Made by a program: the position numbers and the translations under genes. Positions 33,532-58,641 of a stretch of 64,000 bases of DNA are shown here, in pieces. Under the pieces are notes generated by a model. That model was given only the letters and a program-made list of their open reading frames with translations. It searched no databases and was not told the origin of the DNA. Location: positions 10,425-74,424 of the forward strand of contig JAOAET010000041.1 in the NCBI GenBank assembly GCA_026416665.1, in the 5' to 3' direction. Position 1 is the first letter of the stretch. Each line of letters begins with the position of its first letter. Source of the stretch: Candidatus Omnitrophota bacterium (GTDB taxonomy: Bacteria; Omnitrophota; Gorgyraeia; Gygaellales; Profunditerraquicolaceae).

Positions 33532-34440
33532 ATGTATGAGGCCTACTGGGGGCTAACAGAAAAACCATTTGAAAATACCCCTGACCCACGTTTTTTCTAC
33601 TACTCACAACAACATAAAGAGGCAATTGCCCGCATGCTCTATGTGGTGCGTGAGCATAAAGGGGCAGCTCTTTTTACAGGAGAATATGGTTGCGGGAAAA
33701 CACTTCTTTCACGTATCTTATGGCAGGAATTACAACAGGAGAATCGCTACCAACCTGTATTTATCTTAAATCCCCGCCTGTCGGGTGTAGAGTTTATTCA
33801 AGAAATTGTCCATCAGTTAGGAGGTGCTTTTGAATCTCAGGCAAAGATTGATTTATTTCATTGTCTACATAAGATACTCTACGCCAACCATAACGCAAAT
33901 AAACACAGTGTTATTATTATTGATGAGGCACAGGCAATTAAAGATAAAGATACTTTCGAAGAGATAAGATTGCTTTTAAATTTCCAGTTGGATAATGCCT
34001 TTCTTTTAACCATTATCCTGTTGGGACAACCAGAGTTAAAATTTACTGTAATGAGTCTTCCACAATTTATGCAAAGAATGGCGGTTCGTTTTCATTTGAA
34101 GGCCTTTAATGAAATAGAGACCAGACAATATATTGAACATCGCTTAGCAGTCTGTGGAGTGAAACGACAACTGTTTGCGGACGAGGCATATAAAGAGATA
34201 TATGTTGTTACCGGTGGCATACCCCGTCGTATTAATACCATATGTGATTTGGCTTTGTTAGTTGGTTTTGGTTTAGGTTTGACTATTATAGACCACCAAA
34301 CCATCATAAAAATTAATCAGGACTTAGAATCACCTGATTTTAACGGTTCACTTCAACAACCTCTACAGACCGCTAGTGATAATTCTACAAATAACGGAGC
34401 AAGTCAGATTGATTCCTTAAAAGTCAAACCACAGACATAG
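33532..34440 (+). CDS. ExeA/GspA/MshM-like AAA+ ATPase
   Basis: N-terminal YWGLTEKPFENTPDPRFFYYSQQHKEA...LFTGEYGCGKTLLSR (ExeA signature plus Walker A) and a Walker B IIIIDEAQ. Confidence 0.75.
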   Translation: MYEAYWGLTEKPFENTPDPRFFYYSQQHKEAIARMLYVVREHKGAALFTGEYGCGKTLLSRILWQELQQENRYQPVFILNPRLSGVEFIQEIVHQLGGAFESQAKIDLFHCLHKILYANHNANKHSVIIIDEAQAIKDKDTFEEIRLLLNFQLDNAFLLTIILLGQPELKFTVMSLPQFMQRMAVRFHLKAFNEIETRQYIEHRLAVCGVKRQLFADEAYKEIYVVTGGIPRRINTICDLALLVGFGLGLTIIDHQTIIKINQDLESPDFNGSLQQPLQTASDNSTNNGASQIDSLKVKPQT

Positions 34441-34463: not shown

Positions 34464-35564
34464 ATGTTAAGTATTCTAAATGTATTGAAAAAATATTATG
34501 AAGAGAAGAAGAAGACAGCTGAAGGTGTATCTTCTAATTCTGAAAAAGAGCGTTCAGATGTAACTTCAATAGTACAGAATTTAGAACTTCCTTCCTTGGC
34601 AGACTGCGGTGCTACAAGAGAATCAATAAGTATTTTTACTGTGGTAAACAGACAGTCAGAGGAAGAGAAGGCTCAGAAAGCAAGAGAATTTTATTTTAAT
34701 CTTGTAAATTGGCTAAGAAAGATTTATACAACAGAATTCCAAGCGAATGCACAATTTAAAGAAGAGTGTTTTAGTTTTATTGATGAGCAGTTAACGTATC
34801 TTAACACTGCCGTTGAGGAATTGATTCATCAAGCAAATAGTGACTATCCTGTTGATGAGACCTGGCTTGCTTCTCATGCAGCAGCAGTAAGTGTGATTGC
34901 TTTAGAGATAGCCAAGGGGTTAGAATATAATAGGCAGAAGCTTATGGAACTGGCAGCTTGTGTATTCTTTCATGATATTGGAATGCTTAAGATTTTGGAC
35001 ATTGTCCAGAAACAATCACAATTAAGCAAAGAAGAGTTGGCGCAGATAAGACAACATCCTATTATGGGGACAAGTCTTTTAGGGACGATGAATCTTGGAC
35101 TATTTAGTTGTATAGGTGAGGTTATATTACAAGAGCATGAGCGGATAGATGGTAGTGGGTATCCTCAAGGTTTAAAGCAAGATACAATTAATGAATATGC
35201 AAAGATATTGGGCCTTGCGGATATTTACGAAGCACTTACTCATAATCGCCCTTATCGTAGAAGAATTACACCACCTAAGGCAATAAACTTGATTCTAAAT
35301 AACAAACATCTGTTTGATGCGAAAGTTTTGAAAAAACTTTTAGAACGCATAGGGGTCTTTCCAGCAGGGAGTCTGGTGCGTCTAAATACAAAAGAAATTG
35401 GGGTGGTCACGAAGATTAACCATCAGCTTCCACTTAGGCCCACAGTGTTAGTTTTATTTGAAGAGAAAGGAACAAGACTTTCGGCACCAAAAGAACTTGA
35501 CCTCTCAAAAAATTTTTTACTTTGTATTGAGGAGTGTATTGAGGAAAATGTAACAGTATCTTAA
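34464..35564 (+). CDS. HD-GYP domain protein (c-di-GMP phosphodiesterase family)
   Basis: HDIGMLKI and HERIDGSGYPQGL motifs in the C-terminal half. The N-terminal half has no recognisable domain. Confidence 0.75.
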   Translation: MLSILNVLKKYYEEKKKTAEGVSSNSEKERSDVTSIVQNLELPSLADCGATRESISIFTVVNRQSEEEKAQKAREFYFNLVNWLRKIYTTEFQANAQFKEECFSFIDEQLTYLNTAVEELIHQANSDYPVDETWLASHAAAVSVIALEIAKGLEYNRQKLMELAACVFFHDIGMLKILDIVQKQSQLSKEELAQIRQHPIMGTSLLGTMNLGLFSCIGEVILQEHERIDGSGYPQGLKQDTINEYAKILGLADIYEALTHNRPYRRRITPPKAINLILNNKHLFDAKVLKKLLERIGVFPAGSLVRLNTKEIGVVTKINHQLPLRPTVLVLFEEKGTRLSAPKELDLSKNFLLCIEECIEENVTVS

Positions 35565-37349: not shown

Positions 37350-38225
37350 ATGAGAATTATTTTGCGTATTTTTATAGTTGTTATCAACGTTTTTTGGTTT
37401 TCTTTACTTTTAGCTGGTGATGACGATATTGAAAAAGCCCGACAATATTATGAATTAGGGAACATTCTCTATCAAGAAGGCAAATATGACCAGGCACAAC
37501 AACAGTATCAGAAGGCATTGGAGTTGTTACAGAAAAAGCAATCTTCTTCTTTGACTTCAACACCTTCTTCAATACCTTTACCATCTCCAACTCAGCAGAG
37601 CCAGTTACCAGAAGTTCCTAAAAGAAAAGAGGAGCCACGCCTTATAACCGAGTACAGAATAGGTGATGAGGATATCCTGAAAATTTCTGTTTGGCAGAAT
37701 GATGACTTAAACCAAGAAGTTATTGTTCGTCCTGATGGTAAGATTTCTTTTCCACTTATTGGTGATGTCCCTGCACGCGGTTTAACTATTCCTGAGTTAG
37801 ATGAAGAGATTACCCACCGACTTTCAGAATATGTACGTTCACCAGAAGTTTCTATTTCACTGGTTAAGATGGGTGGGTCTCGGGTTATTATTTTAGGGCA
37901 GGTACACAGACCTGGTGTTTATAATGTATCAGGGGCAAAGACAATTTTAGAAGCAATTGGTTTAGCCGGTGGTTTTACTAATGATGCGGTACCTTCCAGT
38001 ACCATTCTTATTAGAGGTGGGTTTATTGACCCTAAACCACAACGGATTAATTTAAGTAAAGCCCTCAAAGGAAAAAACGCCGAGGCGTTTAGAATTTCGT
38101 TACAACCTGAAGATATAATCTATGTTCCAAAGAAGTTTATCGCCGATATTAATTACGTCCTTTCCCTTATTGTCGACCCTATTGCCAAAGGTACTTATAT
38201 TAAAGATACCTATGAAAAATGGTAA
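37350..38225 (+). CDS. polysaccharide export protein, Wza/KpsD family (Poly_export + SLBB)
   Basis: YRIGDEDILKISVWQNDDLNQEVIVRPDGKISFPLIGDV (Poly_export) and GQVHRPGVYNV...ILEAIGLAGGFT (SLBB) motifs. The N-terminus has a TPR-like helix pair and an S/T/P-rich linker. Confidence 0.75.
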   Translation: MRIILRIFIVVINVFWFSLLLAGDDDIEKARQYYELGNILYQEGKYDQAQQQYQKALELLQKKQSSSLTSTPSSIPLPSPTQQSQLPEVPKRKEEPRLITEYRIGDEDILKISVWQNDDLNQEVIVRPDGKISFPLIGDVPARGLTIPELDEEITHRLSEYVRSPEVSISLVKMGGSRVIILGQVHRPGVYNVSGAKTILEAIGLAGGFTNDAVPSSTILIRGGFIDPKPQRINLSKALKGKNAEAFRISLQPEDIIYVPKKFIADINYVLSLIVDPIAKGTYIKDTYEKW

Positions 38226-38372: not shown

Positions 38373-38660
38373 ATGGATACACTCTACGAAAAAAATCCTG
38401 ACGTTATTTTTAGAAAAATTGCTGGTGAATATCTGCTTATGCCCATAAAACAAAAGGCAGTAGATTTAAGAAGTATCTATACCTTAAACGAAACAGCTTC
38501 CTGTATCTGGCAACTTCTTGATGGTAAAACAACTATTGGTGATATACAAAAAGCACTTTGTGAGCAATTTGATATTACTTCAGAGCAAGCACTTTGGGAT
38601 ATTCAAGAATTTGTTAGTCAACTGGAGGCGTTAGGTTTTATTCATAGAATAAGCCGATAG
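38373..38660 (+). CDS. PqqD-like protein (RiPP recognition element, RRE)
   Basis: About 95 aa. NETASCIWQLLDGKTTIGDIQKALCEQFDITSEQALWDIQEFVSQLEALGFI is the PqqD/RRE pattern. The start was chosen at the internal ATG 38373. Confidence 0.6.
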   Translation: MDTLYEKNPDVIFRKIAGEYLLMPIKQKAVDLRSIYTLNETASCIWQLLDGKTTIGDIQKALCEQFDITSEQALWDIQEFVSQLEALGFIHRISR

Positions 38661-38661
38661 T

Positions 38662-40419
38662 ATGAAGCAGGTGCTTTTATGTATTCCGCCTGACTACGAC
38701 CATGAATATCCTGCCTTAGGAACAGCGGTTCTTCAGGCGTATCTTAAGAAACACAAGGTTTCTTGTTTACAAATCGACTTAAATCTTGCTTATCGAAAAT
38801 TTCTTGCCCAGCATGTCTGGGCAGAAACAGAGCTTACTTTAGAGGAACAAATTTTTTTCCTACCTTGGCTTATAAAGAAATTCTTTCGCAACTGTCTTAA
38901 AGGTCGTTATTACGAAGATTGTCTTGCCCGCCAATCAGATGGAATCTTTCCAGAGTTGCCTTATGGTAACAACACCAACAGTTCCTTCTTTTTCTGTGAG
39001 CATTTACTTTCTTCAGAATATCTATTTAGATATCTTGAAGATGAAGAAGAAAATACCTTTTGGCAGTTTTTTACACAAAGTGGCATCTTAGATATAATTC
39101 AACAAGAAGACATAAAACTAGTAGGAATCTCTATTATTTCTCCTTCACAGGCAATTGCTTCATTGACATTAGCTTTACTGATTAAGAAGAGATTTCCCCA
39201 AGTGCATGTAAATATCGGTGGACAGTGGCCTACGCTTTACAGACGTCAAATTTTAGAACATAGACAGTTATTTAGATGTTTTGATAGTGTAATCGTCTTT
39301 GAGGGAGAAGTTGCTTTACTAGAATTAGCAAGAAGAGTTTGCGCAAACAAAGAAATTACAGGTATTGCTAATGTTATTACCAAAGATACAAAACTAAATG
39401 AGCACTTTAGAATTGCTGAGATAGATATGCGTAGACTGCCACCACCTGATTTTGAAGGCCTTCTCCTAGGAGAATACGACGGTGCAAGGGATGGCCAGAT
39501 TAGTTTAACTTTTGAGAGTTCTCGAGGTTGTTACTGGGGGCGTTGTGCCTATTGTGTAGATTTACCTTTACCTAAACCCAGTTATCGTATAAAATCAGCA
39601 CAATTAGTAGTAAGAGATATGTGTTATTTAAAGGATAAATTTGGAGCAAGCTTTTTACTATTGAGTGACCCTGGACTTTCTTGTCGTCAGATGGTAGAGA
39701 TTTCGGAAGAGATTATTCGGCAGGGAGTAAAAATTAATTGGTGGACAATGGCACGGCTTGATCCTGGATTTAAGAAAGAACATTTTGAACTTGCCCATAA
39801 AGCAGGCCTTTGCCAGATAAATTTTGGTTTTGAAACAGCATCTGAACGTCTAAGTAAACTTTTAGACAAGGGGAACCTAAGAGAACGTAGTTCTCGCATT
39901 ATCCGAGACTGTGCCTTAAGTGGTATAAAGGTGGATTTGCAGACAATGCTGGGGTTACCGCAGGAAACTTATGAAGAGGCTCTAGAAACAATAGATTTCT
40001 TGCTAGAACACAAAGAGTTTATCAGCCATGTTACCTTTAATATCTATTACCTTACACCTGAGAATTATGTGTATTATAACCCTTACAGGTATGGTATAAG
40101 TTATGACAAAGAAAAAGTTTTGCCTTTTTCTTTCTTTATTCCTTTTCAAAATTTATATGGGATAGATATGGAGAAAGCAGCACAGATAGAAAAAATTTAT
40201 TATGCCTTGGTAGAAAAAGAAAAAATAACAAGCAAAGCCAAAGAAGAAATTGGGAAAATAGACTTATTTAGTTCTACTGAAACAGAAAACAGCCAGCTTT
40301 TAAAAGAGGTGTTTATAACTTTGTTAGATCAAACAGTAAGTATTAAATATTACTATGATGAAAAGACTGATACCTGTACTTTTTTAGAAGAAGAGGATGT
40401 CTTTTCGCAAAGAAGGTAA
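38662..40419 (+). CDS. B12-binding-domain radical SAM enzyme
   Basis: N-terminal cobalamin-binding-like Rossmann segment, then SSRGCYWGRCAYC (Cx4Cx2C radical SAM cluster motif). 585 aa. Confidence 0.75.
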   Translation: MKQVLLCIPPDYDHEYPALGTAVLQAYLKKHKVSCLQIDLNLAYRKFLAQHVWAETELTLEEQIFFLPWLIKKFFRNCLKGRYYEDCLARQSDGIFPELPYGNNTNSSFFFCEHLLSSEYLFRYLEDEEENTFWQFFTQSGILDIIQQEDIKLVGISIISPSQAIASLTLALLIKKRFPQVHVNIGGQWPTLYRRQILEHRQLFRCFDSVIVFEGEVALLELARRVCANKEITGIANVITKDTKLNEHFRIAEIDMRRLPPPDFEGLLLGEYDGARDGQISLTFESSRGCYWGRCAYCVDLPLPKPSYRIKSAQLVVRDMCYLKDKFGASFLLLSDPGLSCRQMVEISEEIIRQGVKINWWTMARLDPGFKKEHFELAHKAGLCQINFGFETASERLSKLLDKGNLRERSSRIIRDCALSGIKVDLQTMLGLPQETYEEALETIDFLLEHKEFISHVTFNIYYLTPENYVYYNPYRYGISYDKEKVLPFSFFIPFQNLYGIDMEKAAQIEKIYYALVEKEKITSKAKEEIGKIDLFSSTETENSQLLKEVFITLLDQTVSIKYYYDEKTDTCTFLEEEDVFSQRR

Positions 40420-41872
40420 TCTTATAAAAATGAGAGCATTTCCTGTATCAATGATGGAAGACCACGACCAGGCCTATTTTTTCTGGAAGAAGCAAGGTCT
40501 AAAAGGATTTACTCTTTTACATATTGATGCACATCTTGACTTTGGTTGGTTGCCAGAACTTGACTGGCAACAATTGCCCACTATTTCTTTTTCACAATTA
40601 CCTGCTTTGCAATCACAACTGTTGCTTAATCCTTTTATTACTTCAAAAGAAAAACTACTTAATATTGGTAATTTTATTTGCTCTGCTATTAGAGATGGTA
40701 TTGTTAGACGGTTGTTTTGGATTGTTCCTGAGCCAACATTAAATTGTCTGCGCGGAAATTATTTCTTGCAGAAGCAGATAAAACAAATCTTACGGCTAAA
40801 AAAAACCGATACAGGTAGCTTTTTGATAAAGCAAAGAAGTATTAATTTCCGCTTGGCAGGAGTTGAGGTTACTGTTTGTGGTTTAAGTGACTTCTGTTAC
40901 GTAGAAGAGCCAGTGCTTCTGGATATAGATGTAGATTTTTTGGTTACTGGCTATATCTGGAATGACGTTGATCCTTGTCGTATTCCTTGGATATACCCTG
41001 ACCAGTTATATGAGTTGGTAAGTAAGAAAATTTCTCAAATTGAGGCCTTAACTATAGCCTATTCAGTGGAAGGAGGCTTTACCCCTCTAAAATTCAAATT
41101 CCTTGGTGATTACCTGCGACTTTACTTTACAGAGGACTTTAGCAAAGAAGATGAAGACAGTTTAGAGAGAAGAAAAGAGGCAATATATTTAGAAGAACAG
41201 AAGCAATACGACAAAGCAGAAGCCATTTATGAGGAACTTTTAAAAATTAACCCAAAAGATGCCTCAATTTATTTTGCTCTTTATTTGTTGAACTTAAACA
41301 GTCACATAGCCGATATTACAAAAGCGAGAAATTATTTCTACAGGGCTATTCAAATTGACCCGACATATTCCACAGAATATAATAATTACGGCATTCTCTA
41401 TGCACGCAATGGCCGTTATAGCCAGGCAAAAAAGTATTACCAAAGGTTCTTAGAGATGTGTCCGACTAATGCTTCTTGCTGGGAAGGATTAGGTTTTATT
41501 GCTTTAAGAGAAAGAGATTACACAGCCTCTCTGAGATTTTTTAAAAAGTCCTTAGAATATGATTCACAAAGATTAGCTAGTCAATTGGGTGTAGCAATTA
41601 TTCATTTTTATCAAGGGGTTTTAGATAAGGCAGAAGAGATGCTTTTTTCGTTAAAAGAGAAGTTAACTGATAATTTTGAAATCTATTGGTGGCTGGCACG
41701 CATTGCCCATAAAAAAGGGCTTAATAAACAGGCAATTAATTACTACAAGAAGGCAGTTTTAACTGGTGGTGAAGGAGTAGCTGTTCACTGGTATCTGGCA
41801 AGTTTGTATTTAAAAGAAAAAAATTTTTTCAGAGTAACAGAAGAATTAAGCCGTATTATTCAACAGATTTAA
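40397..41872 (+). CDS. TPR-repeat protein with N-terminal UPF0489/arginase-like domain
   Basis: N-terminal FTLLHIDAHLDFGW (DAHxD-like metal-site motif). The C-terminal half has at least 5 TPR repeats. The start may instead be the ATG at 40430. Confidence 0.5.
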   Translation: MSFRKEGNLIKMRAFPVSMMEDHDQAYFFWKKQGLKGFTLLHIDAHLDFGWLPELDWQQLPTISFSQLPALQSQLLLNPFITSKEKLLNIGNFICSAIRDGIVRRLFWIVPEPTLNCLRGNYFLQKQIKQILRLKKTDTGSFLIKQRSINFRLAGVEVTVCGLSDFCYVEEPVLLDIDVDFLVTGYIWNDVDPCRIPWIYPDQLYELVSKKISQIEALTIAYSVEGGFTPLKFKFLGDYLRLYFTEDFSKEDEDSLERRKEAIYLEEQKQYDKAEAIYEELLKINPKDASIYFALYLLNLNSHIADITKARNYFYRAIQIDPTYSTEYNNYGILYARNGRYSQAKKYYQRFLEMCPTNASCWEGLGFIALRERDYTASLRFFKKSLEYDSQRLASQLGVAIIHFYQGVLDKAEEMLFSLKEKLTDNFEIYWWLARIAHKKGLNKQAINYYKKAVLTGGEGVAVHWYLASLYLKEKNFFRVTEELSRIIQQI

Positions 41873-41875
41873 GAT

Positions 41876-42154
41876 ATGTTTTTACAGAATAAACTAAAGA
41901 GGTGTTTTCAAAAAAACGAAGATATTATTGAAGAAGAAAAAGACAGGATAATTACTCTTTTTGACCCGTATCGTAGAGTAGCAATTAGATTAAGTCCTAC
42001 TGGATATAGGATTTGGCAGTTAATAGATGGTCGCCGTCAAGTATCCGATATTATTGAAGAATTGAAAAAAGATTTTGAGGTCAATGAAAAAACCATCTGT
42101 AGAGATGTTATATGTTTTCTGGATAAGTTAGCTAAAAGAGAGATAATCAAATAA
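41876..42154 (+). CDS. PqqD-like protein (second discrete RRE)
   Basis: 92 aa. RLSPTGYRIWQLIDGRRQVSDIIEELKKDFEVNEKTICRDVICFLDKLAKREII is the PqqD pattern. Confidence 0.55.
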   Translation: MFLQNKLKRCFQKNEDIIEEEKDRIITLFDPYRRVAIRLSPTGYRIWQLIDGRRQVSDIIEELKKDFEVNEKTICRDVICFLDKLAKREIIK

Positions 42155-43275
42155 TGTTTTGTTCAATTCAGCAAAGAAAATTTGCGGATTTATGTAACGA
42201 ACTCGATTCTGTGGCTATTAAAGAAAAGATTCCTTATATGTGTGCCTTTGAACTTACTTATCGGTGCAATTTATCCTGCTGTCACTGTTATTGCAATTTA
42301 CCAGCAAATCATCCCAACAAAGAAAAGGAGATTCCCACAAATAAGGTTAGGCAACTTCTTGATGAAATGGTAGATAGTGGGTGTTTATGGTTATTGTTGA
42401 CAGGGGGTGAGGTGTTTTTACGTGAAGATTTTTGGCAAATCTATCTGTATGCCTTAAGAAAAGGTTTTCTTATTGACCTGTTTACCAATGCGACATTACT
42501 AGATGAGGAGAAAGTGAAACGTCTTTCCGATTACCCACCTCTTTCTCTAGAAATAAGTTTATATGCTGCAAAGGAACAAATTCATGATAATATAACTGGA
42601 GTGTGTGGTTCATTTAAGCGGTTAATGAATGCTATCACTGCCCTTAAAAAATACAATGTACCTTTCTCATTAAAAAGTATTTTGATGAAAGAGAACATTG
42701 CTGAACTTACTGCTATGCGTAAATTAGCCAAGGATTATCAGGTAAGTTTTCGTTATGATACATTAATCTGTCCTCGCTTAGATGGAGGTAACTTGCCCTT
42801 GATTCATCGGTTAAGCGAATGGGAAATGGCACAATTGGATATATTAGATGATTACCCTATTTTGGAGAAGATTTTTCAGGAATATTGGGCTAAACCAATG
42901 TCAGAGCCACTTATCTGCGGAGCAGGGGTATTTGCCTTTAATATTAATCCATACGCAGTGTTAAGCCCTTGCACGATGTTTAAGAGTTTTCAATATTCGT
43001 TACATAATGTGTCTTTTTTGGAAGCTTGGAAAAAGATGACTGGTGAGTTTGAAAAAAAAATAAAATATCTTCTGGAACCTCTTTGCCAAAAATGTAATAT
43101 GGTTTATATTTGTCCCAATTGTCCTGCCTGGAGTGAGTTGGAGACAGGCAGTTTAAAGGGTATTGTCAGACATATCTGCCTATATGCCAAGACACTAGAA
43201 AAGATTTACAGGATAACAAAGGAGGGCAATAATGGAGAAAAAGCCTTATCAAAAACCAACAATGCAGGAGGTTAA
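42154..43275 (+). CDS. radical SAM enzyme with C-terminal SPASM domain (peptide-modifying maturase family)
   Basis: CAFELTYRCNLSCCHCY (Cx3Cx2C) and a Cys-rich C-terminus CQKCNMVYICPNCPAWSE typical of SPASM auxiliary clusters. Confidence 0.8.
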   Translation: MFCSIQQRKFADLCNELDSVAIKEKIPYMCAFELTYRCNLSCCHCYCNLPANHPNKEKEIPTNKVRQLLDEMVDSGCLWLLLTGGEVFLREDFWQIYLYALRKGFLIDLFTNATLLDEEKVKRLSDYPPLSLEISLYAAKEQIHDNITGVCGSFKRLMNAITALKKYNVPFSLKSILMKENIAELTAMRKLAKDYQVSFRYDTLICPRLDGGNLPLIHRLSEWEMAQLDILDDYPILEKIFQEYWAKPMSEPLICGAGVFAFNINPYAVLSPCTMFKSFQYSLHNVSFLEAWKKMTGEFEKKIKYLLEPLCQKCNMVYICPNCPAWSELETGSLKGIVRHICLYAKTLEKIYRITKEGNNGEKALSKTNNAGG

Positions 43276-43390
43276 ACTTTCTATTGATGATACTTTATTA
43301 TCTGCCTGTCGTAAGACAGCAACTTCACGGGTCAATCCTAAACGGGGAACTTCTTGCCGTGCCTGCAGAACAACCTATCGTTCTTCATAA
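43232..43390 (+). CDS. candidate RiPP precursor peptide (52 aa, not in the supplied ORF track): MEKKPYQKPTMQEVKLSIDDTLLSACRKTATSRVNPKRGTSCRACRTTYRSS
   Basis: ATG at 43232 with an AAAGGAGGG RBS 6 nt upstream. It overlaps the last 44 nt of the rSAM-SPASM gene in another frame. The leader has a lasso-type YxxPxL element (YQKPTM). The core is Cys/Thr/Ser/Arg-rich with 3 Cys. Confidence 0.45.
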   Translation: MEKKPYQKPTMQEVKLSIDDTLLSACRKTATSRVNPKRGTSCRACRTTYRSS

Positions 43391-43408
43391 AACAGTTACC
43401 TCCTTATA

Positions 43409-44293
43409 ATGAAAGATGATATTGGAGTAAGTAATAGCTTTAGTGTCTTACTTAACATAGCAGGTTTAGGCCTGTCTATTAAAAGTAGTGTGCCTTTTCG
43501 TTGTTTTAAGGATTTTAGTTTCTATGAAAAGTTCATTGTAAATGAATTTCCTGAGATATCGTGTTTTCTTACCCATCGAATAGGAGTGCCGAATCTTTAT
43601 TTAAATACTGCCACAGAAACTTTTACTACCCAAAATTGGCTACTTCAAACCACTACAGACAAAAAAATTCTTATTGTTGGTCCACAACAAAAAAACAAAC
43701 TAGTAGATAATGTAGCAGTATTTAACTCAGATTATAGTCAGGGTATTTTGTATCAGAAACATATCTATGAGATATTTCGTAGGTTTATAGACCAGTTTTT
43801 ATTTATCAATATTTTAAGTAGAAGAAAAGGATTTCTATTTCACGCCTCAGGTGTAATTTACCAGAATAAAGGACTTTGTTTTGCTGGCGTATCTGGAAGC
43901 GGAAAATCTACTTTACTTAGTCTTTGGCGAAGAGAAGTCCCAGAGGATGCTTTATTAAACGATGACAGAGTAGCATTGCGTAGAATAAAAAGAAGGTGGT
44001 TAATTTTTGGAACGCCTTGGTATGGTGAGTCAAAAGTTGCTACCAACAAATCGGCACGGTTAAATACCATTTTTTTTATTCGCCATGCGGATAAGACTTT
44101 TCTTAAGCCGATATCCGTAAACCAGGCATTAGCAAAGTTAGGGGTACTGGCTTTATTACCTTTATGGGATAAATCTTCTGTTAAGCAGGTATTATCTTCC
44201 TTTGAGATGTTGGTAAAAGAGGTTCCTATGTATGAATTTGGTTTCCGACCTGATAAAACGGCAGTAGAAACAATAAAAGAGCTCTTATGCTAA
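43409..44293 (+). CDS. HPr-kinase-C-like P-loop kinase
   Basis: GLCFAGVSGSGKSTLLS Walker A in an HprK_C-like context. Homologues occur as precursor-peptide kinases in lasso-type clusters. Confidence 0.55.
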   Translation: MKDDIGVSNSFSVLLNIAGLGLSIKSSVPFRCFKDFSFYEKFIVNEFPEISCFLTHRIGVPNLYLNTATETFTTQNWLLQTTTDKKILIVGPQQKNKLVDNVAVFNSDYSQGILYQKHIYEIFRRFIDQFLFINILSRRKGFLFHASGVIYQNKGLCFAGVSGSGKSTLLSLWRREVPEDALLNDDRVALRRIKRRWLIFGTPWYGESKVATNKSARLNTIFFIRHADKTFLKPISVNQALAKLGVLALLPLWDKSSVKQVLSSFEMLVKEVPMYEFGFRPDKTAVETIKELLC

Positions 44294-46455
44294 TGGAGGT
44301 TGTTTGTTCTCAGCAAGAATTTGATAAATTATTGACACAGATACGCTCAAAGGTAAACTATGTTACTTTTCAGGCAAGAGGAGCAAGTATGTTTGCCTTT
44401 ATCAAGAAAGGGGATTGGTTAAAAATAGAAATTCTGCCTCAGAACAGCGATTGTTTAATTCGTAAGGGAGACGTTGTCCTTTTTAAAAAACAAGATATGC
44501 TTTTTCTACATAGAGTTATACGGATAAATAAGGAAGGATTTTTAGTAAAAGCAGATGCCTCTTTAGGAAGTGACGGAGTTATTTTGCCTGATGAGATTAT
44601 AGGAAAACTTATTACTATTCAAAGAGGCAGAAAATTGATAGATTTAGATAAACGAGTTTACCGTTTGGTAGCATTAGGTATAGCCAATTTAAGTAATCTG
44701 TTTTCTTGCTTATGGTTTATTTTCGATAAACTGTGCATGTTTTATCTTAAGATACTGCATTGCTTACAGAAAGTTTCCCTCTACAGAAAAATAGCCCGTA
44801 TGTTTTGTGGAGATATTATTATTCGGCAAGCAACTACAAATGACCAACAGCAGTTACGTGATTTGTATCGTATGGCTGGTATTGATGTACAAGAAGGGCT
44901 GAGTAAAATAAAGTTAGAAGGATTTTGGTTAGTAGCCCAGAGAAATAAAAAGATAGCCGCAGCGGTTACTATTTCTGCCAGTGAAAGTGACCCAAGTTTT
45001 TGGCTTATCTTTGGCTTGGAAGTAAAGCCATGGTTGCGCGGTATGGGAATCGGGAAAAAAATTATTCAACACGCAATAAGCATGGCCAAGGAAAGAGGTG
45101 CAAAAAAGATAGGTTTGTTTGTATCCAAAAAAGCAACCGCTGCAGTTAATCTTTATCGGTCTTTGGGTTTTATTCCCACAGAAGAAGTTCCCGAAGGTTA
45201 TAATCGCTGGCAAGAAGATTTGTTTTTAGTATACAGTGATTGTTTTAAGAAGAGAAAAAAACAACAAGGAGAAGCAAAAAAAATGTATTCAGAAGAGCCA
45301 CTTAGTTCTTCCTTAAAGGCTTCCTTAAAGGCCCTTATTCAACTGGTTTGCTTAGATAATCAATCTAGAAGTAACTTTAATTATAGAAATTTTTCTGTTA
45401 TACAGTGGCAAGATTTACTAAAACTCTCCATTAAGGAAGGATTATTTTTTCCTTTCTGGCAGGGTTTACAAAGATATTTTCATCTACAACAGAAAACTCA
45501 AAACTCTCCATTAACCTTTACAAAGATGAACTTCATCAAAGAGATTATTCCTGAGCAAGTAGCAGAAGAGTTTATGGATAACTATTACCATCATCTTGCC
45601 GCAAGTATGATGTTTAGTTCAGCGGTAGAATCAATTCTAAACCATCTAGAGAATCATCAAATACTTACACTTCTTATGAAAGGTCCAACGGTAGATAATA
45701 TTATTTACGGTGACTACTTACGTAGCCGTGGCGATTTAGATATTGTGGTGAAACAAAAAGATTGGCCTTTACTTACTAGGGTTTTAGAAAATATAGGATA
45801 TTTTATACAACTACCGCCAAGAGATTACCCATTATTTGAATACCAGAATAGTCTTTTATTCTTACCTAAAAAAGAAGGCATACCCATTCATCTACATAAT
45901 AACTTATTTAATAATTTATATTTAGGCGTTGATGGGCTATTTTTGCCTTCTATGGAAAAAGTTTGGCAAGAGACTATACCGCTTAAGAATTACCAGTGGA
46001 TTCGTGCTTTGCAACCTGAAATGCAGATTATTTATCTTTGTGAACATGCAGTTAAACATAATTTTGAACAGTTGGTTTTAGCTTATGAAATCCAGAGGAT
46101 AATTCTTATATATGCGAATTCTCTGGACTGGAATAAATTAGTGATTCTTACCCAATCAATGGGGTTAACCCAGGTTGTATATACTGCCTTAGAAGTGGTC
46201 AGAGACCTGTTTAACATAGATTTACCTGTTGAACGGTTAAAGAGATTACAACCGAAGCTTACTGTTGTCCAGAGATGTTTTCTAAGAAAAGTAAGAGATA
46301 GGAAGATATCTTATTGGACTTGTTATCCTTTATATCTTAGTATGCGCAAAAAATTTTTTTATAAACTGCGTTTTATCTGGTACAGTTTTTTCCCACCTGG
46401 TTTTCCTTTGCGAGGATATCTTACTAGGATAAGGAAATTAATACTGGCACAATGA
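44287..46455 (+). CDS. tri-domain fusion: S24/S26-peptidase-like N-terminus + GNAT acetyltransferase + uncharacterised nucleotidyltransferase (NTP_transf_5-like)
   Basis: GASMFAFIKKGDWLKIE (peptidase S24/S26 fold), a GNAT core (RGMGIGKKIIQHAISMAKERGAKKIGLFV) and a C-terminal LLMKGPTVDNIIYGDYLRSRGDLDIVV nucleotidyltransferase motif. 722 aa. Confidence 0.55.
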   Translation: MLMEVVCSQQEFDKLLTQIRSKVNYVTFQARGASMFAFIKKGDWLKIEILPQNSDCLIRKGDVVLFKKQDMLFLHRVIRINKEGFLVKADASLGSDGVILPDEIIGKLITIQRGRKLIDLDKRVYRLVALGIANLSNLFSCLWFIFDKLCMFYLKILHCLQKVSLYRKIARMFCGDIIIRQATTNDQQQLRDLYRMAGIDVQEGLSKIKLEGFWLVAQRNKKIAAAVTISASESDPSFWLIFGLEVKPWLRGMGIGKKIIQHAISMAKERGAKKIGLFVSKKATAAVNLYRSLGFIPTEEVPEGYNRWQEDLFLVYSDCFKKRKKQQGEAKKMYSEEPLSSSLKASLKALIQLVCLDNQSRSNFNYRNFSVIQWQDLLKLSIKEGLFFPFWQGLQRYFHLQQKTQNSPLTFTKMNFIKEIIPEQVAEEFMDNYYHHLAASMMFSSAVESILNHLENHQILTLLMKGPTVDNIIYGDYLRSRGDLDIVVKQKDWPLLTRVLENIGYFIQLPPRDYPLFEYQNSLLFLPKKEGIPIHLHNNLFNNLYLGVDGLFLPSMEKVWQETIPLKNYQWIRALQPEMQIIYLCEHAVKHNFEQLVLAYEIQRIILIYANSLDWNKLVILTQSMGLTQVVYTALEVVRDLFNIDLPVERLKRLQPKLTVVQRCFLRKVRDRKISYWTCYPLYLSMRKKFFYKLRFIWYSFFPPGFPLRGYLTRIRKLILAQ

Positions 46456-47241
46456 GCCATCTTTTTGGACTCTTCTTATTGCCCAGTCAAACATAAGAAT
46501 GGAAAAAGGTAAAAGGGTTATAGAAAAAAAGAAGAGGAAAAAAATCTGAGGTAACAGTTTCTCCAAAGAATAATTTTTATACACTGCAGATTGTATTGCC
46601 TCAATAGCGTAGGTAATGGGAAATAAACGTGCACAAATTTGAAGCCAAAAAGGCAATACTGTAATTGGGAAATACACGCCTCCGAGTAATCCTTCCAGAG
46701 TTCCGATTAACCAACTCAAAGGATTGGCTCGTTTAGTTATCATTACAAAGCTTGCAGAAAGTATACCTAAACCAGAAAAAGAGGTAATGGTAAGAAAAAG
46801 AATAACCGCGCAAGACACTATATTTATTTGCTGAAAGTCAATACGAAATAAAAAGACAGCTAAAAGAAGATAAATTATTAGGTCAACAGTAGCAATAATT
46901 AGATTCCACAGAACCAGTGAGAACAAAAAGACACTTATTCTAGTAGGTGTAGCAACAATAGCTTCAAGGGTACCTTGCTGTTGTTCTAAACGCAGACGGT
47001 CTGAGAATGCCCCTAAGCCCACACCAGCATAACCAAAAAATGCGCTACTTAGTAAGACGTAAGCAAAATAATTTACGCCAAAAGGTTCGAGATGCCTGAC
47101 TATGGTATGACCAAATAGTTTATCAATAAAGAAATAACTTAATAAATTAAAAAAGATACCGAGGATATTTAGAAAAAATGACAGACGGTAACTTGTCTCT
47201 TGAAGAAAATCTTTTTTAAGAAAAGCAAATACTCTACGCAT
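46438..47241 (-). CDS. ABC-2 type transporter permease
   Basis: 267 aa. Six TM segments and an ABC-2 membrane pattern. Confidence 0.65.
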   Translation of the reverse strand: MRRVFAFLKKDFLQETSYRLSFFLNILGIFFNLLSYFFIDKLFGHTIVRHLEPFGVNYFAYVLLSSAFFGYAGVGLGAFSDRLRLEQQQGTLEAIVATPTRISVFLFSLVLWNLIIATVDLIIYLLLAVFLFRIDFQQINIVSCAVILFLTITSFSGLGILSASFVMITKRANPLSWLIGTLEGLLGGVYFPITVLPFWLQICARLFPITYAIEAIQSAVYKNYSLEKLLPQIFFLFFFSITLLPFSILMFDWAIRRVQKDGSLCQY

Positions 47242-47242
47242 T

Positions 47243-48073
47243 CTATTTTTCTTGCTTAGAGGTTAATTCCAAAAACAACTCTTTAACAGATGCCTTAGGG
47301 TTGCGGGTCGCCTGTCTTAACTCTTCTTGAGTTCCAAAACCACAGACCCTGCCTTGTTTGATAATAAGATATAAGGTGGCTAACTCTTCTGCTTCTTCCC
47401 AGCGATGGGTGGTAAAAATTACAGTTGCTTTCTGACGTCCAAGTATTTCGTGTTTTAAGAATTCACGCAATTTTAGACAACAGCGGTAATCTAGACTTTT
47501 ACTTGGCTCATCCAACAGCAGAAGACGAGGTTCATGCATAAAAGCACGCACAAGTCCTATTTTTTGTTGCATCCCTGTAGAGTAATTGTCAAAGCGTTTA
47601 TCTAAAAAATCTATTTCAAACAGGTTAGATAACTTCTCAATTTGTTGGGAAGTTTGTTTTTTGGATAGGCCATAGAGAGAAGCAAAAAACTCTAAATTCT
47701 GTCTTCCGGTTAATCGCCAATAAAAAGTTCTTTCACTATTCGTTACCAGACCAATTAAACGTTTCAGTTTATAACCATTTTTGGTAGAATTAAGGCCATC
47801 AAAGATTATTTCTCCCTTATCAGGTAAAAGAATATTGGCAACAATCTTTAGGAGAGTAGTTTTGCCTGCTCCGTTAGGACCAAGTAGTGCTAATACTTGA
47901 CCAAATTCTAAAGAAAAAGATACATCAGATAGGGCAACTAATGGTTGTCGTGACGGGTGTCTAAAAAAAGGTAAGTTGTTTAAAACTAAGGGAAAAAAAA
48001 TCTTTGTAATACCTTTTACTTTTAGCATAGTTTTAAGTTTAGCAGATAAGTATCTGTGCGTCAACAGTAGCAA
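47243..48073 (-). CDS. ABC transporter ATP-binding protein
   Basis: Walker A LLGPNGAGKTTLLK, ABC signature YSTGMQQKIGL, Walker B LLLLDEPS. Confidence 0.8.
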   Translation of the reverse strand: MLLLTHRYLSAKLKTMLKVKGITKIFFPLVLNNLPFFRHPSRQPLVALSDVSFSLEFGQVLALLGPNGAGKTTLLKIVANILLPDKGEIIFDGLNSTKNGYKLKRLIGLVTNSERTFYWRLTGRQNLEFFASLYGLSKKQTSQQIEKLSNLFEIDFLDKRFDNYSTGMQQKIGLVRAFMHEPRLLLLDEPSKSLDYRCCLKLREFLKHEILGRQKATVIFTTHRWEEAEELATLYLIIKQGRVCGFGTQEELRQATRNPKASVKELFLELTSKQEK

Positions 48074-49118: not shown

Positions 49119-49772
49119 ATGGAAAAAAAATTAATATTAGGATTAATAATATTATTTACCTTGCAAGTATCATCTTATGGTGATAACGTGGCTGTTACTC
49201 CTCAAGAATACATAGTTACTATTAATAAAATTGAATTCTATAACGAAGATACCTCTTCTTGGATCACCGTTGGTGAAGGAAAGCTTAGTTTTGATATTGC
49301 TTCAGTTAATGCCGGACAGACAGTGGGTAGTTATGTAGATGCTAGTGCCGTTGCCGAAGGTACTTATACGCAGGGAAGAGTTTATGTTTCACTTACCTTT
49401 TATTTAAAGGCCAGTGCTACTATTGATGGGACTACTTACTACACAACTGAAGGCGGATACGAGAATCCTTTCCCTGATTCTGAACTTCAAGGTTACATTG
49501 CTGCAAAAACTACAACGGATCCTAATCGCGCTTCCAGGGGAATATCGGTTCTTACCGAACAGGCTTTAGAAAGAGCAGGTTTTGATGTTGTAGGAGATAG
49601 TTTTATATTTGAAGGAGAAGTTCTATTACCTATTGTAGTAAAAAAAGGTTTTACCAAAAAGGTCAGAATTAATTTTAATGTAACAAATAGTGTAGCCTTT
49701 GAAGAGATTCCTTCCGGCGACGTGGTGTGTTATCCTTTACCGCCAGTACTTACTTTTAAGGTAATTGACTAA
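49119..49772 (+). CDS. secreted hypothetical protein
   Basis: Signal peptide (LILGLIILFTLQVSSYG). 217 aa, beta-rich composition. Confidence 0.4.
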   Translation: MEKKLILGLIILFTLQVSSYGDNVAVTPQEYIVTINKIEFYNEDTSSWITVGEGKLSFDIASVNAGQTVGSYVDASAVAEGTYTQGRVYVSLTFYLKASATIDGTTYYTTEGGYENPFPDSELQGYIAAKTTTDPNRASRGISVLTEQALERAGFDVVGDSFIFEGEVLLPIVVKKGFTKKVRINFNVTNSVAFEEIPSGDVVCYPLPPVLTFKVID

Positions 49773-50072: not shown

Positions 50073-52055
50073 ATGGCACAATACGAACTTAATTTACGAG
50101 ATTATCTAAGGATTCTGCGTAAACGTAAGTGGGTTATTTTTCTTACTTTTGCAGTGGTTAGCATCATAAGTATTTTAGTGTTAAGTAGTGGCGAAAAAAT
50201 ATATCGGGCCACTGCCACTGTTAAAATTCAAGAGCGTAAAACCATTGCAGGGCTTTTGACTGAGATGTTTGTTTATAGCCCTGGGGATATTATGACTACT
50301 GAGTCGCAATTTGTAACAAGTTTTCCTATTGCGCTTAACGTATGCTTACGTATGGATAAATTAAAAGATGATTGGCTTAGTCGAAAACGTAAGATGGGAG
50401 AGATAGAGTACATAGAACCAGAGGATGTTAAACCCGAGTTTATTGAAGAAGTAAATCAAGTTGTTGGGGAATTGCAGAGTAAGATAAAAGTAGAAATAGT
50501 ACAAAATACCAATATGTTACGCATAAGCGCAGAGTCAAGTGTTCCTGTTGAGGCCATGGATATTGCTAATATGGTAGCCACAGTTTATATAGAAGCAAAC
50601 TTAAGAGAAAAGAATAAACACGCTGCCCATGCCCGCCAGTTTATTGAAGAACAATTGCAGACTTTAGAAGCTAACTTGCGCCGTTCCGAAGATGAGAAAC
50701 TGCAAAAGTTTGGTGAAGGTGCTGAGATGGTAAAACTTGCCCAACCCATTGAAGATAAATTGGTAGAACTGCAGTTTAAACTCTCTGAACTTCTACAAAA
50801 ATATACCGAACGCCATCCTCAAGTTATTCAATTACGCCAGCAGATTAAGAGTTTAGAAGAACAAGTTCAAGGTGTTTCCGGCAGACAACTAGAATATGCA
50901 CGGTTAGTCCGAGAAATTGAAGTAAATAAAAAACTTTATGAAATGCTTAAGGAGAAATTGGAAGAGGCACGTATCACCGAGGCACAAAGAGTAAGTGATG
51001 TCTCTTTTGTTGAACGAGCAGTTATGCCTGAAGAACCTCTAAGTGGTGACCGCACACTTAAGATTGTTATGGCTTCCTTTTTGGGATTAATTTTAGGGGT
51101 ATCTATGGCTTTTATTTTAGAAACAATGGATACCTCTATTGGTACTATTGAAGATGTGGAGAATGTGATAAAACTTCCTGTTTTAGGTGTTGTCCCACCT
51201 ATTGAGTGGGAAACAAAGACATATACTATTTTACATCGAATAAAGGAACAATTTTTCCCTTCTAACAAAAATGATGCCGAAGAACGTCTTGTTCACCTCT
51301 ACGCCCATTTTAAACCGCAGTCACCTACAACAGAAGCATTTCGCAATATACATACCAATCTTAAACTTAATACTACAAGAAAAGTGTTAATTATCACCAG
51401 TTCTGGTCCTAGAGAAGGGAAGAGCACAGTGGTTTGTAACTTAGGGTTAGTTATGGCACAGATAGGGTTACGGACTCTTTTAGTATCTTGTGATTTACGC
51501 AGACCAGTTATCGCTAAAATATTTGGGATTAAGCGCGAACCAGGTTTAAGTGAATTAATAAGGGGTAGTGCTTCTTTAGATGAAGTCCTTTATAATATTA
51601 CAGATTTGTTACTTGGTGATTTGGGGTTTGATGTGATACGTAAAACCCCTGGGATGGAGAATATTTGGATATTACCTTCTGGACATCTTCCTTCTAACCC
51701 CGTTGAAATTTTAGAATCAAAGGCAATGTCAGATATAATTGTTCAGCTGAGAGAAAAATTTGACGTTGTTCTTTTTGATACCCCGCCAGTTTTACCGGTT
51801 ACTGATGCCAGTTTATTAGCCAGTAAAGTAGATGGGGTAGTCATTGTGTATGAGATTGGGCGTACAGGTAGAGAAGGACTTATGCGCACAAAAGTGCAAC
51901 TTGAGGCAGTAGGCGCTAAAATCTTAGGCGTTGTCCTAAATCACACAATGCCTCAGACAGAGTTAGTATCACCTTATCCTTACTACCATAAGTATGCCTA
52001 CTATAGTGAAGAAAAACAGATTAACAAAAAAAATACAAATCGTGAAAAGACCTAA
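50073..52055 (+). CDS. polysaccharide co-polymerase/BY-kinase (Wzc/CapAB-like: Wzz domain + tyrosine autokinase + C-terminal Tyr cluster)
   Basis: Two TM segments flanking a periplasmic coiled-coil. Walker A ITSSGPREGKST (CapB-like), Walker B VLFDTPPV, C-terminal PYPYYHKYAYYSEE tyrosine cluster. Confidence 0.8.
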   Translation: MAQYELNLRDYLRILRKRKWVIFLTFAVVSIISILVLSSGEKIYRATATVKIQERKTIAGLLTEMFVYSPGDIMTTESQFVTSFPIALNVCLRMDKLKDDWLSRKRKMGEIEYIEPEDVKPEFIEEVNQVVGELQSKIKVEIVQNTNMLRISAESSVPVEAMDIANMVATVYIEANLREKNKHAAHARQFIEEQLQTLEANLRRSEDEKLQKFGEGAEMVKLAQPIEDKLVELQFKLSELLQKYTERHPQVIQLRQQIKSLEEQVQGVSGRQLEYARLVREIEVNKKLYEMLKEKLEEARITEAQRVSDVSFVERAVMPEEPLSGDRTLKIVMASFLGLILGVSMAFILETMDTSIGTIEDVENVIKLPVLGVVPPIEWETKTYTILHRIKEQFFPSNKNDAEERLVHLYAHFKPQSPTTEAFRNIHTNLKLNTTRKVLIITSSGPREGKSTVVCNLGLVMAQIGLRTLLVSCDLRRPVIAKIFGIKREPGLSELIRGSASLDEVLYNITDLLLGDLGFDVIRKTPGMENIWILPSGHLPSNPVEILESKAMSDIIVQLREKFDVVLFDTPPVLPVTDASLLASKVDGVVIVYEIGRTGREGLMRTKVQLEAVGAKILGVVLNHTMPQTELVSPYPYYHKYAYYSEEKQINKKNTNREKT

Positions 52056-56033: not shown

Positions 56034-56058
56034 ATTTTTTTAGAACATCTTTGGCAGT

Positions 56059-58636: not shown

Positions 58637-58641
58637 AAAGT

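Follow-up and report, generated by a model that had tools for sequence, protein, structure and literature searches.

A predicted radical SAM/SPASM peptide maturation cluster with an HprK-like kinase, located beside exopolysaccharide export genes in a Candidatus Omnitrophota genome

Results

Gene organization of the cluster

The window analyzed in this study is a 64,000-nucleotide stretch of contig JAOAET010000041.1 from a Candidatus Omnitrophota bacterium (assembly GCA_026416665.1). At positions 38373–48073 it carries ten open reading frames (ORFs), extending from the ATG of a gene for a PqqD-family protein (38373) to the start of the minus-strand ATPase ORF of an ATP-binding cassette (ABC) transporter (48073) (Table 1). 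An initial annotation had described this locus as a cluster for a peptide that is made by the ribosome and modified after translation (RiPP) in which radical S-adenosylmethionine (rSAM) enzymes take the place of the lasso peptide enzymes. An ORF map and Pfam and NCBIfam scans, which covered 18–63 kb of the window, found all ten ORFs where they had been placed and reproduced the gene list, positions, and domains. The 52-amino acid (aa) peptide had been called unannotated, but GenBank does list this ORF, as 'hypothetical protein N2606_04735'. The ABC-2 permease and ATPase genes are convergent to the plus-strand cassette. At E values up to 5, Pfam gave nothing for the 52-aa peptide or for a 217-aa and a 493-aa ORF further downstream, and only P-loop noise for the kinase. 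An Rfam scan of the window found no RNA family. Promoter and terminator scans of the window gave chance-level results only, and therefore no operon boundaries are claimed.

We consider it likely, with a probability of roughly 0.8, that positions 38373–48073 constitute a complete RiPP biosynthetic cluster whose substrate is the 52-aa product of 43232–43390. The cluster appears to be an elaborated member of a large unnamed family, the core of which, judged from gene content, is formed by an rSAM/SPASM enzyme, a precursor peptide, a discrete PqqD protein, and an HprK-like kinase. The additions in the window are a second PqqD protein with a B12-binding rSAM enzyme, a fusion of a peptide arginase with tetratricopeptide repeats (TPRs), a peptidase/GNAT/nucleotidyltransferase fusion, and an ABC-2 exporter.

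Table 1 Features of the cluster and of its neighborhood in the window. RRE, RiPP recognition element; EPS, exopolysaccharide; E, E value.
Feature	Position	Strand	Match or basis
PqqD-family RRE chaperone no. 1	38373..38660	+	PF05402, E 1.9e-18
B12-binding rSAM enzyme, putative peptide C-methyltransferase	38662..40419	+	PF02310 and PF04055
Peptide arginase-like domain (residues ~12-250) fused to TPRs	40397..41872	+	PF12640, NF052474
PqqD-family RRE chaperone no. 2	41876..42154	+	PF05402, E 1.7e-15
rSAM/SPASM enzyme, putative peptide maturase and core enzyme	42154..43275	+	Radical_SAM and seven invariant C-terminal Cys
Predicted precursor peptide, 52 aa, MEKKPYQKPTMQEVKLSIDDTLLSACRKTATSRVNPKRGTSCRACRTTYRSS	43232..43390	+	Conserved small ORF
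HprK-like P-loop kinase, 294 aa, putative C-terminal Ser kinase	43409..44293	+	TIGR04355, E 8e-8
Fusion of S24/S26-like peptidase (~1-120), GNAT (~180-320), and NTP_transf_5 (~370-645), 722 aa	44287..46455	+	
ABC-2 type exporter permease	46438..47241	-	PF01061, E 7e-16
ABC exporter ATPase, DrrA-like	47243..48073	-	PF00005, E 3e-28; TIGR01188 drrA, E 2e-52
XrtA/PEP-CTERM-type ATPase	33532..34440	+	TIGR03015, E 1.3e-65
HD-GYP-like HD-domain protein	34464..35564	+	Cyclic di-GMP phosphodiesterase-type HD domain, E 1.6e-23
Wza-like polysaccharide export protein	37350..38225	+	TIGR03027 pepcterm_export, E 3.5e-34
Inverse-autotransporter beta-barrel protein, 293 aa, without passenger	48217-49098		PF11924, E 2e-31
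Secreted-looking protein, 217 aa	49119-49772		No family match
Wzc-like chain-length determinant/tyrosine kinase	50073..52055	+	Wzc, E 4e-58; eps_fam, E 7e-47
Wzy_C	52137-53516		
Flippase	53506-55086		
Methyltransferase and six glycosyltransferases	55038-63306		

A small ORF conserved next to the rSAM/SPASM gene

A search with the rSAM/SPASM enzyme (42154–43275) gave 598 homologues at E < 1e-10, and a 100% identical NCBI protein comes from a Candidatus Omnitrophica metagenome-assembled genome. Loci were fetched by way of the rSAM alignment (80 genomic and 80 metagenomic) and, for seven more, by exact protein look-up, and their gene content was determined by tblastn of all window proteins against them; L081, the P0010 contig, and L163–L167 were also annotated with Pfam. 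Both the rSAM/SPASM gene and the kinase-like gene were found in 81 related loci, and in almost every one of them the rSAM/SPASM gene has a PqqD gene next to it. Dozens of unrelated contigs show the same arrangement of genes, small ORF included, which goes far beyond chance.

A strong Shine-Dalgarno sequence, AAGGAGG, precedes the precursor ORF by 6 nt, and the ORF shares 44 nt with the end of the rSAM gene. After the rSAM gene, related loci nearly always hold one recognizable type of small ORF, 50–70 codons long, and it stands at the equivalent place in ~60 fetched loci from Omnitrophota, Deltaproteobacteria/Thermodesulfobacteriota, Nitrospirota, Acidobacteriota, Verrucomicrobiota, Chloroflexota, Aminicenantes, Planctomycetia, and Elusimicrobia. 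An alignment of 40 small ORFs showed that P9, C26, C42, C45, and the C-terminal S52 are invariant and Y6 nearly so. The consensus is a K-rich N-terminus followed by Y-x-K-P-x-Φ-x-x-Φ-x-L-x-x-E-E-x-Φ-L-x-x-C-K-x(12-15)-C-x4-C-x(3-5)-G-S. The YxxPxΦ leader is common to the family, with PYQKPTM in the window peptide. Two largely independent samples of 124 and 146 sequences gave the same picture: exactly three Cys in 124/124 and 142/146 members, a C-terminal Ser in 122/124 and 142/146 (the window peptide ends in YRSS), and 'CK' after the first Cys in 120/124 and 142/146. Outside the Cys, K, and GS positions, the cores are hypervariable.

A profile search of 5.8 billion proteins retrieved 421 members, all labeled hypothetical and without a Pfam domain, and an exhaustive search of 1.84 billion cluster representatives retrieved 1,529 at E ≤ 0.001, 199 of them at E ≤ 1e-10. 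The role that the initial annotation gave to the small ORF depended on its conservation next to rSAM-SPASM homologues, and the fetched loci together with these representatives demonstrate this conservation decisively. The 52-aa ORF thus appears to encode a real, conserved precursor peptide. The family is large, with ~1,500 clusters at 50% identity in many mostly uncultured, often anaerobic phyla.

A scan of the window for small ORFs with the YxxPxΦ motif found no second precursor. Among the profile matches, P0324 (1,823 aa), with eight matches to the leader part of the profile, was rejected as an unrelated repeat protein. L120 carries four tandem, longer precursor-like genes (11037–13349, 85–99 aa) with the shared leader MPKKxKFKPxITxVKLNPEQxVL; all end in SS or TS and adjoin an arginase-TPR gene and a kinase gene. 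This locus looks like a multi-precursor, long-core branch of the family. The precursor of L164 has five Cys and seven Arg.

The rSAM/SPASM enzyme resembles peptide maturases

The rSAM/SPASM enzyme has a CX3CX2C motif at C38/C42/C45, and the alignment showed seven invariant Cys in its C-terminal part, the pattern that would be expected of a SPASM domain with two auxiliary clusters; no Pfam SPASM match was reported for this protein. In the NCBIfam ranking, AhbD (heme b synthase) came first, followed by MftC, PqqE, WgkB, AlbA, and ScmE, all with scores below the cutoffs, and the heme enzymes AhbD and NirJ matched over the N-terminal core only. A profile of the rSAM family searched against the Protein Data Bank (PDB) matched SkfB (1e-25), PqqE (5e-19), and CteB (2e-10). 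An AlphaFold2 (AF2) model built on the alignment had a predicted local distance difference test (pLDDT) score of 90.5, and its Foldseek neighbors SkfB, SuiB, PqqE, CteB, anSME, and EpeE are all peptide- or protein-modifying enzymes; the sugar-nucleotide rSAM enzyme BlsE was also among the structural neighbors. Sequence identity to the characterized sacti- and ranthipeptide enzymes is 15–20%.

The B12-binding rSAM enzyme has the motif CYWGRCAYC. The Cx4Cx2C reported for it initially is therefore correct, and the form GCYWxxCxYC is kept in 7 orthologues. Its best NCBIfam match is TIGR03975 (RiPP maturation rSAM C-methyltransferase; 119 bits versus a cutoff of 281.85), with ApyD also close. The order of PqqD no. 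1 followed by the B12-rSAM gene is repeated in L081, L163, L164, and L165. In L163, a DUF4160/DUF2442 pair (toxin-antitoxin-like) and an unrelated 52-aa ORF lie between these two genes (4471–4978). Taken together, the NCBIfam, PDB profile, and Foldseek results and the affinity of the B12-rSAM enzyme to TIGR03975 support the assignment of both rSAM enzymes to peptide maturation rather than to sugar or EPS synthesis.

An HprK-like kinase belongs to the core of the family

Against NCBIfam, the kinase-like protein matched TIGR04355 (HprK_rel_B) with 31.7 bits versus a cutoff of 200. Comparison with the HPr-rel-A system likewise gave scores below the cutoffs (TIGR04352, 15.5 versus 200; the PqqD family TIGR04353, 17.6 versus 35). 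A profile of 12 kinase sequences matched HprK (1jb1/2qmh, E 0.006) and phosphoenolpyruvate carboxykinase (E 0.01) in the PDB over the P-loop region, and phmmer of the kinase alone gave generic P-loop noise only. In the same 12 sequences H145, G160, S162, G165, K166 (Walker A), D185, D186, and R187 are invariant, and these residues appear to correspond to active-site elements of HprK; the window kinase carries GVSGSGKST and NDDR.

Pfam assigns PF27840 'ScmC' to the kinase orthologues of L081 and L163–L167, those of L081 and L163–L165 being 37–49% identical to the window kinase, which itself gave no match to PF27840 even at E values up to 5. The minimal cassettes of L166 and L167 consist of the rSAM, peptide, PqqD, and ScmC genes only. 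Since the kinase gene is present even in these four-gene cassettes, it is a core component, unlike in lasso clusters. The initial annotation had regarded it as a lasso-type accessory gene; its near-universal presence, in the 81 loci and the minimal cassettes, contradicts this. The precursor family provides a defined substrate family for the 'ScmC'-type kinase-like proteins, which curators had flagged without a known precursor.

The HprK homologues of lasso clusters, PadeK and PsmK, phosphorylate the C-terminal Ser of the linear precursor, and the D158A/D159A mutant of PsmK is inactive, so that the equivalent DD pair is essential (PMC6993621, PMC8498205). Because of this precedent and the near-invariant C-terminal Ser in the present family, phosphorylation of Ser52 is the best-supported step of the predicted chemistry. 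In five loci (L008, L098, L111, L113, and L152), the peptide ends in Pro, Gln, or Asp and GEDQ replaces (S/N)D(D/E)R in the kinase, and two peptides that end in Thr accompany a kinase that keeps DDR. This co-variation is consistent with phosphorylation of the C-terminal Ser.

Peptide arginase, fusion protein, and exporter

The N-terminal domain of the arginase-TPR protein matched PF12640 (E 1.6e-4, 22.6 versus 27) and NF052474, the FlmR/OhkR family (E 1.2e-9, 38.1 versus 350); phmmer of the whole protein against the PDB was swamped by TPR matches. Peptide arginases have the motifs EEH(N/H)EAF, DXHXD, and LDIDLDYF, which provide six metal ligands (PMC10028609). The corresponding metal-binding motifs are all present in the window protein as MEDHDQAY, DAHLD, and LDIDVDF. 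All 11 orthologous ORFs keep DxHxD, and each of the two remaining motifs occurs in 7 or 8 of them.

The precursors vary along with this gene. The core contains 2–8 Arg in nine arginase-containing loci versus mostly 0–2 in 58 others (Mann-Whitney p ~1e-5, ignoring shared ancestry). In addition, 'CK' gives way to 'CR' at the first Cys in the window peptide, in those of L001, L081, and L164, and in the three closest peptides from the databases, and the four 'CR' peptides in the 124-member sample all belong to the subfamily of the window. Conversion of Arg to ornithine at 'CR' would restore a primary amine. This provides independent evidence that the small ORF encodes the substrate. L164 (Elusimicrobia) carries a 955-aa triple fusion of B12-rSAM enzyme, peptide arginase, and TPR, together with a 681-aa fusion of an S24-like domain, a GT2 domain, and a methyltransferase (5863–13229).

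The 722-aa fusion protein matched NTP_transf_5 (E 9e-31), Acetyltransf_1 (E 2e-15), Peptidase_S24 (E 7.6e-5, 22.8 bits versus a cutoff of 23.3), and the archaeal-type signal peptidase I sigpep_I_arch (E 5e-7). In 32 loci, where it mostly comes straight after the kinase gene, the S24-like domain keeps the motifs G.SM.P, HR, and GD, and we take it to be the putative leader peptidase. In L081, L163, and L164, the domains of the fusion are encoded by separate genes or joined in other combinations. Some lasso clusters have NTP_transf_5 joined to the leader protease, and in pseudomycoidin the hexose on the phospho-Ser depends on a PF14907-type protein (PMC6993621, PMC8498205). In L164, the kinase is followed by a GT2 domain in the position of NTP_transf_5, which supports glycosylation. 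A convergent ABC pair follows the cassette in L003, L007, L015, L025, L081, L087, L163, L164, and L165, and that of L164 has no EPS genes nearby.

Proposed pathway

On this basis we propose the following order of events. PqqD no. 2 would bind the YxxPxΦ leader and present the core to the rSAM/SPASM enzyme, which would cross-link it at the three invariant Cys. The HprK-like kinase would phosphorylate the C-terminal Ser on its side chain, as the lasso enzymes PadeK and PsmK do, and the NTP_transf_5 domain may then add a sugar or a nucleotide to the Ser phosphate, comparable to the PsmN-dependent hexosylation in pseudomycoidin. In steps specific to the subfamily, PqqD no. 1 and the B12-rSAM enzyme may C-methylate the peptide. 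A Mn-type peptide arginase would turn Arg into ornithine, including the Arg that replaces the Lys of the family after Cys1, and the GNAT domain may acetylate an amine. Finally, the Ser/His signal-peptidase-like domain would cut off the leader, and the ABC-2 pair would export the product. As predicted, the window version would stack five or six modification chemistries on one 28-residue core, which makes it a candidate source of enzymes for peptide engineering. As to the nature of the cross-links, thioether bridges of the sacti- or ranthipeptide kind at the three Cys would be our guess for the most likely product.

Several points weigh against this reading. The chemistry, namely, the type of cross-link, the phosphorylation, and the nucleotidyl or glycosyl transfer, is proposed by analogy. 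The core has no conserved acidic or Thr acceptor of the known ranthipeptide kind, and thioether formation is therefore a guess. MftC, which acts on the C-terminus, is the second-best NCBIfam match of the rSAM/SPASM enzyme, and thus its target could be the invariant C-terminal Gly-Ser. The kinase scores below every curated cutoff, reaches an E value of only 0.006 as a profile against the PDB, and gave an unusable single-sequence AF2 model (pLDDT 31.5); the scores of the arginase and S24 domains, too, fall short of the curated cutoffs. The five GEDQ loci are probably one clade and therefore count as a single observation, and the co-variation statistics for both the arginase and the kinase motif ignore shared ancestry.

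The EPS neighborhood and a possible role of the product

The cassette stands between genes for Wza- and Wzc-like proteins of XrtA/PEP-CTERM type, and a PEP-CTERM-type ATPase and an HD-GYP-like protein are encoded upstream (Table 1). The Wza/Wzc flanks given initially stand, but the gene order between the exporter and wzc was incomplete, with two further ORFs located there (48217–49098 and 49119–49772). These two genes are absent from the otherwise syntenic L081, L165, and P0010 contig.

The initial annotation also held that the cluster was inserted into, and interrupts, an ordinary EPS locus. However, the same association recurs across several phyla. L081 and the P0010 contig, relatives at 53% identity, have the identical order followed by Wzc-Wzy-Wzx, L165 has ATPase-HD-cassette-ABC-Wza-Wzc-Wzy-Wzx, L163 (Thermodesulfobacteriota) has ATPase-HD-cassette-ABC-Wza-Wzc, and L005, an Omnitrophota chromosome, has Wza-simple cassette-Wzc. 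Wza homologues adjoin the cassette in L005, L035, L037, L086, L087, L094, L096, L163, and L165, and Wzc follows it in L005, L025, L081, L087, L163, L165, and the P0010 contig; Wza and/or Wzc are thus near the cassette in L035 (Verrucomicrobia), L037, L086, L087, L094, and L096 as well. L163 and L165 have the ATPase-HD pair immediately upstream of the cassette, and HD homologues adjoin the cassette in ~10 loci (L006, L033, L086, L087, L094, L128, L132, L139, L163, and L165), which suggests that the HD-GYP-like protein is a regulatory partner of the RiPP cassette. Placement of this kind recurs in Omnitrophota, Thermodesulfobacteriota, and Verrucomicrobiota, and therefore the cassette is a recurrent module rather than a one-off insertion. 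It is nevertheless recurrent in a subset and not a property of the whole family: Wza or Wzc was detectable in only 7/33 loci with at least 8 kb on both sides, and the commonest subfamily (represented by the minimal cassettes L166 and L167) had neither.

That the cassette repeatedly neighbors genes for Wza/Wzc, a PEP-CTERM-type ATPase, and an HD-GYP-like protein suggests that it is connected with EPS or biofilm biology in this lineage. The best-surviving alternative to an antibiotic-like product accepts a real RiPP and gives it a role in EPS or biofilm biology; the peptide could work as a signal or regulator together with Wzc and the HD-GYP-like protein, or it could be phospho-glycosylated and either be attached to the polymer or prime it. 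The arrangement with Wza/Wzc in Omnitrophota (the window, L005, L025, and L081), Thermodesulfobacteriota (L163), and Verrucomicrobiota (L035), and in the taxonomically unassigned contigs L037, L086, L087, L094, L096, and L165, speaks for such a role, as do the upstream ATPase-HD pairs and adjoining HD homologues. Furthermore, a sugar-extended phosphate on a C-terminal Ser is known chemistry, from pseudomycoidin, and the EPS genes up to 63.3 kb showed none for a priming phosphoglycosyl transferase. By contrast, EPS genes are lacking near most members of the family, common descent may account for the synteny within related lineages, and a priming enzyme may lie beyond the window. We regard this role as rather unlikely, although it deserves more weight than any other alternative. 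Its more specific form, in which the cassette is a working part of the EPS machinery of Omnitrophota, Thermodesulfobacteriota, and Verrucomicrobiota by way of a peptide-phospho-glycan conjugate, serving as primer, cap, or anchor of the polymer or as a signal for the HD-GYP-like protein and Wzc, is a long shot. If it were true, a ribosomal peptide would be a built-in component or regulator of a Wza/Wzc export system. More generally, the repeated Wza/Wzc placement raises the testable idea that some RiPPs act in polysaccharide or biofilm biology.

Other genes of the neighborhood were noted in passing. Among the glycosyltransferase genes lies a 493-aa ORF (60881–62362). Upstream of the PEP-CTERM-type ATPase, two secretin genes (24639–26474 and 30235–31977; PF00263, E ~1e-43 to 1e-47) flank a gene for a 1,175-aa TPR protein, and such a doubling of secretins beside an EPS locus is unusual. 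Positions 18262–19242 of the window encode a member of the class A beta-lactamase family (PF13354, E 7e-65). In L166 (1–2449) and L167 (5011–8793), a giant Peptidase_C25 (gingipain-like) gene stands upstream of the minimal cassette; it is directly adjacent to the cassette in L167, and several genes lie between them in L166.

Other readings of the cluster

A peptide-derived cofactor or redox carrier for intracellular use, like pyrroloquinoline quinone (PQQ) or mycofactocin, would also require a small peptide and an rSAM/SPASM enzyme. MftC matched the window enzyme over nearly its full length (E 3.5e-29), PqqE is close to it in the PDB comparison as well, and both the PQQ and the mycofactocin systems typically have discrete PqqD chaperones. 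MftA ends in a C-terminal Val-Tyr, and the invariant C-terminal dipeptide of the present family resembles it. However, the scores are far from the equivalog cutoffs (MftC, 102 versus 265; PqqE, 89.8 versus 381), and the cassette is accompanied by a dedicated ABC-2 exporter and a signal-peptidase-like protease. Neither partner dehydrogenase nor MftF-type glycosyltransferase genes were seen in the annotated loci, and no MftD/E/F or PqqB/C genes were found there or in the scanned part of the window. The hypervariable cores, too, fit a secreted product better than a cofactor. We therefore think a cofactor very unlikely.

It is still less probable that the rSAM enzymes and transferases are enzymes of the EPS pathway that act on sugars, on lipid carriers, or on the polymer, with the small ORF standing beside them by coincidence. 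In favor of this reading are the surrounding Wza/Wzc/Wzy/Wzx/glycosyltransferase locus, the fact that capsular polysaccharides, too, are exported by ABC-2 transporters (there is a weak KpsM match, E 0.0026), and the presence of BlsE among the structural neighbors of the rSAM/SPASM enzyme. Against this, each rSAM enzyme is paired with its own PqqD peptide-binding chaperone, peptide maturases are the nearest relatives in both sequence and fold, the conserved small ORF varies in step with the arginase and the kinase motif, and most loci lack EPS genes within 10 kb. We rejected this reading on account of the PqqD pairing, the co-variation of the peptide, and the many EPS-free loci.

Least probable of all, and likewise rejected, is a degenerate or split lasso cluster with its cyclase and B2 protease elsewhere in the genome: the YxxPxΦ leader, discrete PqqD protein, HprK-like kinase, NTP_transf_5 and GNAT domains, and ABC exporter are known lasso components, but Pfam and NCBIfam scans found neither an asparagine-synthetase-like cyclase nor a transglutaminase-like B2 protease in 18–63 kb of the window, and neither enzyme appears among the Pfam-annotated genes of L081, the P0010 contig, and L163–L167. 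The one protease-like domain of the cluster is of the S24/S26 kind, the peptide has the rSAM/SPASM enzyme as its invariant partner, and its core has three invariant Cys and no conserved Asp/Glu at positions 7–9 for macrolactam formation. The absence of both lasso enzymes had been noted initially, and it now extends to the annotated related loci. With the conservation of the precursor and the affinity of the maturases, it sustains the description of the locus as a RiPP cluster in which rSAM maturases stand in place of the lasso enzymes.

Comparison with known systems

The predicted RiPP cluster shares features with five kinds of characterized or curated systems. With the paeninodin (pade) and pseudomycoidin (psm) lasso clusters it has in common a discrete PqqD-type RRE, a YxxPxL-type leader, an HprK-homologous kinase, a PF14907-type protein with a protease fusion, and an ABC exporter (PMC6993621, PMC8498205). 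Unlike these clusters, it has neither a cyclase nor a B2 protease, its class-defining enzyme would be the rSAM/SPASM enzyme, its protease is S24/S26-like, and its core has three invariant Cys; the kinase is near-universal here, whereas it is an occasional accessory there.

Like the sactipeptide and ranthipeptide systems (SkfB, CteB/SCIFF, PapB, and AlbA), the cluster combines an rSAM enzyme that has a 7-Cys SPASM-type domain with Cys-containing cores and RRE dependence. It differs from them in that a stand-alone PqqD protein serves as the RRE, in place of a domain at the N-terminus of the enzyme, and in that the core shows no conserved Asp/Glu/Thr acceptor pattern. To our knowledge, an obligatory kinase and an invariant C-terminal Ser do not occur in sactipeptides or ranthipeptides.

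The SynChlorMet (SCM) cassette, with its PqqD protein, rSAM/SPASM enzymes, ScmC-type (HprK-like) protein, and predicted peptide modification, is also similar. However, the window scores far below the cutoffs of its NCBIfam families TIGR04248/04250/04251 (ScmD, 39.5 and 33.4 versus 100; ScmE, 76.4 versus 400; ScmF, 50.6 versus 400) and has one SPASM enzyme, not two. We know of no identified SCM precursor.

With mycofactocin and PQQ (MftA/B/C and PqqA/D/E), the cluster shares a small peptide, a discrete PqqD protein, and an rSAM/SPASM enzyme, but it has in addition an exporter, a protease, a kinase, and tailoring enzymes, and it has no cofactor-dependent dehydrogenases nearby. With the peptide arginases of PF12640 (OspR of landornamide, FlmR, and OhkR), the arginase domain shares the three motifs and the adjacent Arg-rich core (PMC10028609, PMC12703449). 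In contrast to the known examples, the window arginase is fused to a C-terminal TPR and is part of an rSAM/kinase pathway, whereas landornamide uses a lanthionine synthetase and an epimerase (PMC10028609).

Full-text literature searches found no paper on the cassette, and the Pfam, NCBIfam, and full-text searches made here did not return any system in which an rSAM/SPASM enzyme is combined with a 3-Cys, C-terminal-Ser precursor, a discrete PqqD protein, and an obligatory HprK-like kinase. RiPP classes are defined by their core enzyme and precursor, and within RiPP pathways the new elements here are the defined precursor family and the unusual obligatory kinase. As predicted, the cluster would work as a hybrid in which an RRE-dependent rSAM RiPP pathway is combined with the tailoring set of lasso peptides.

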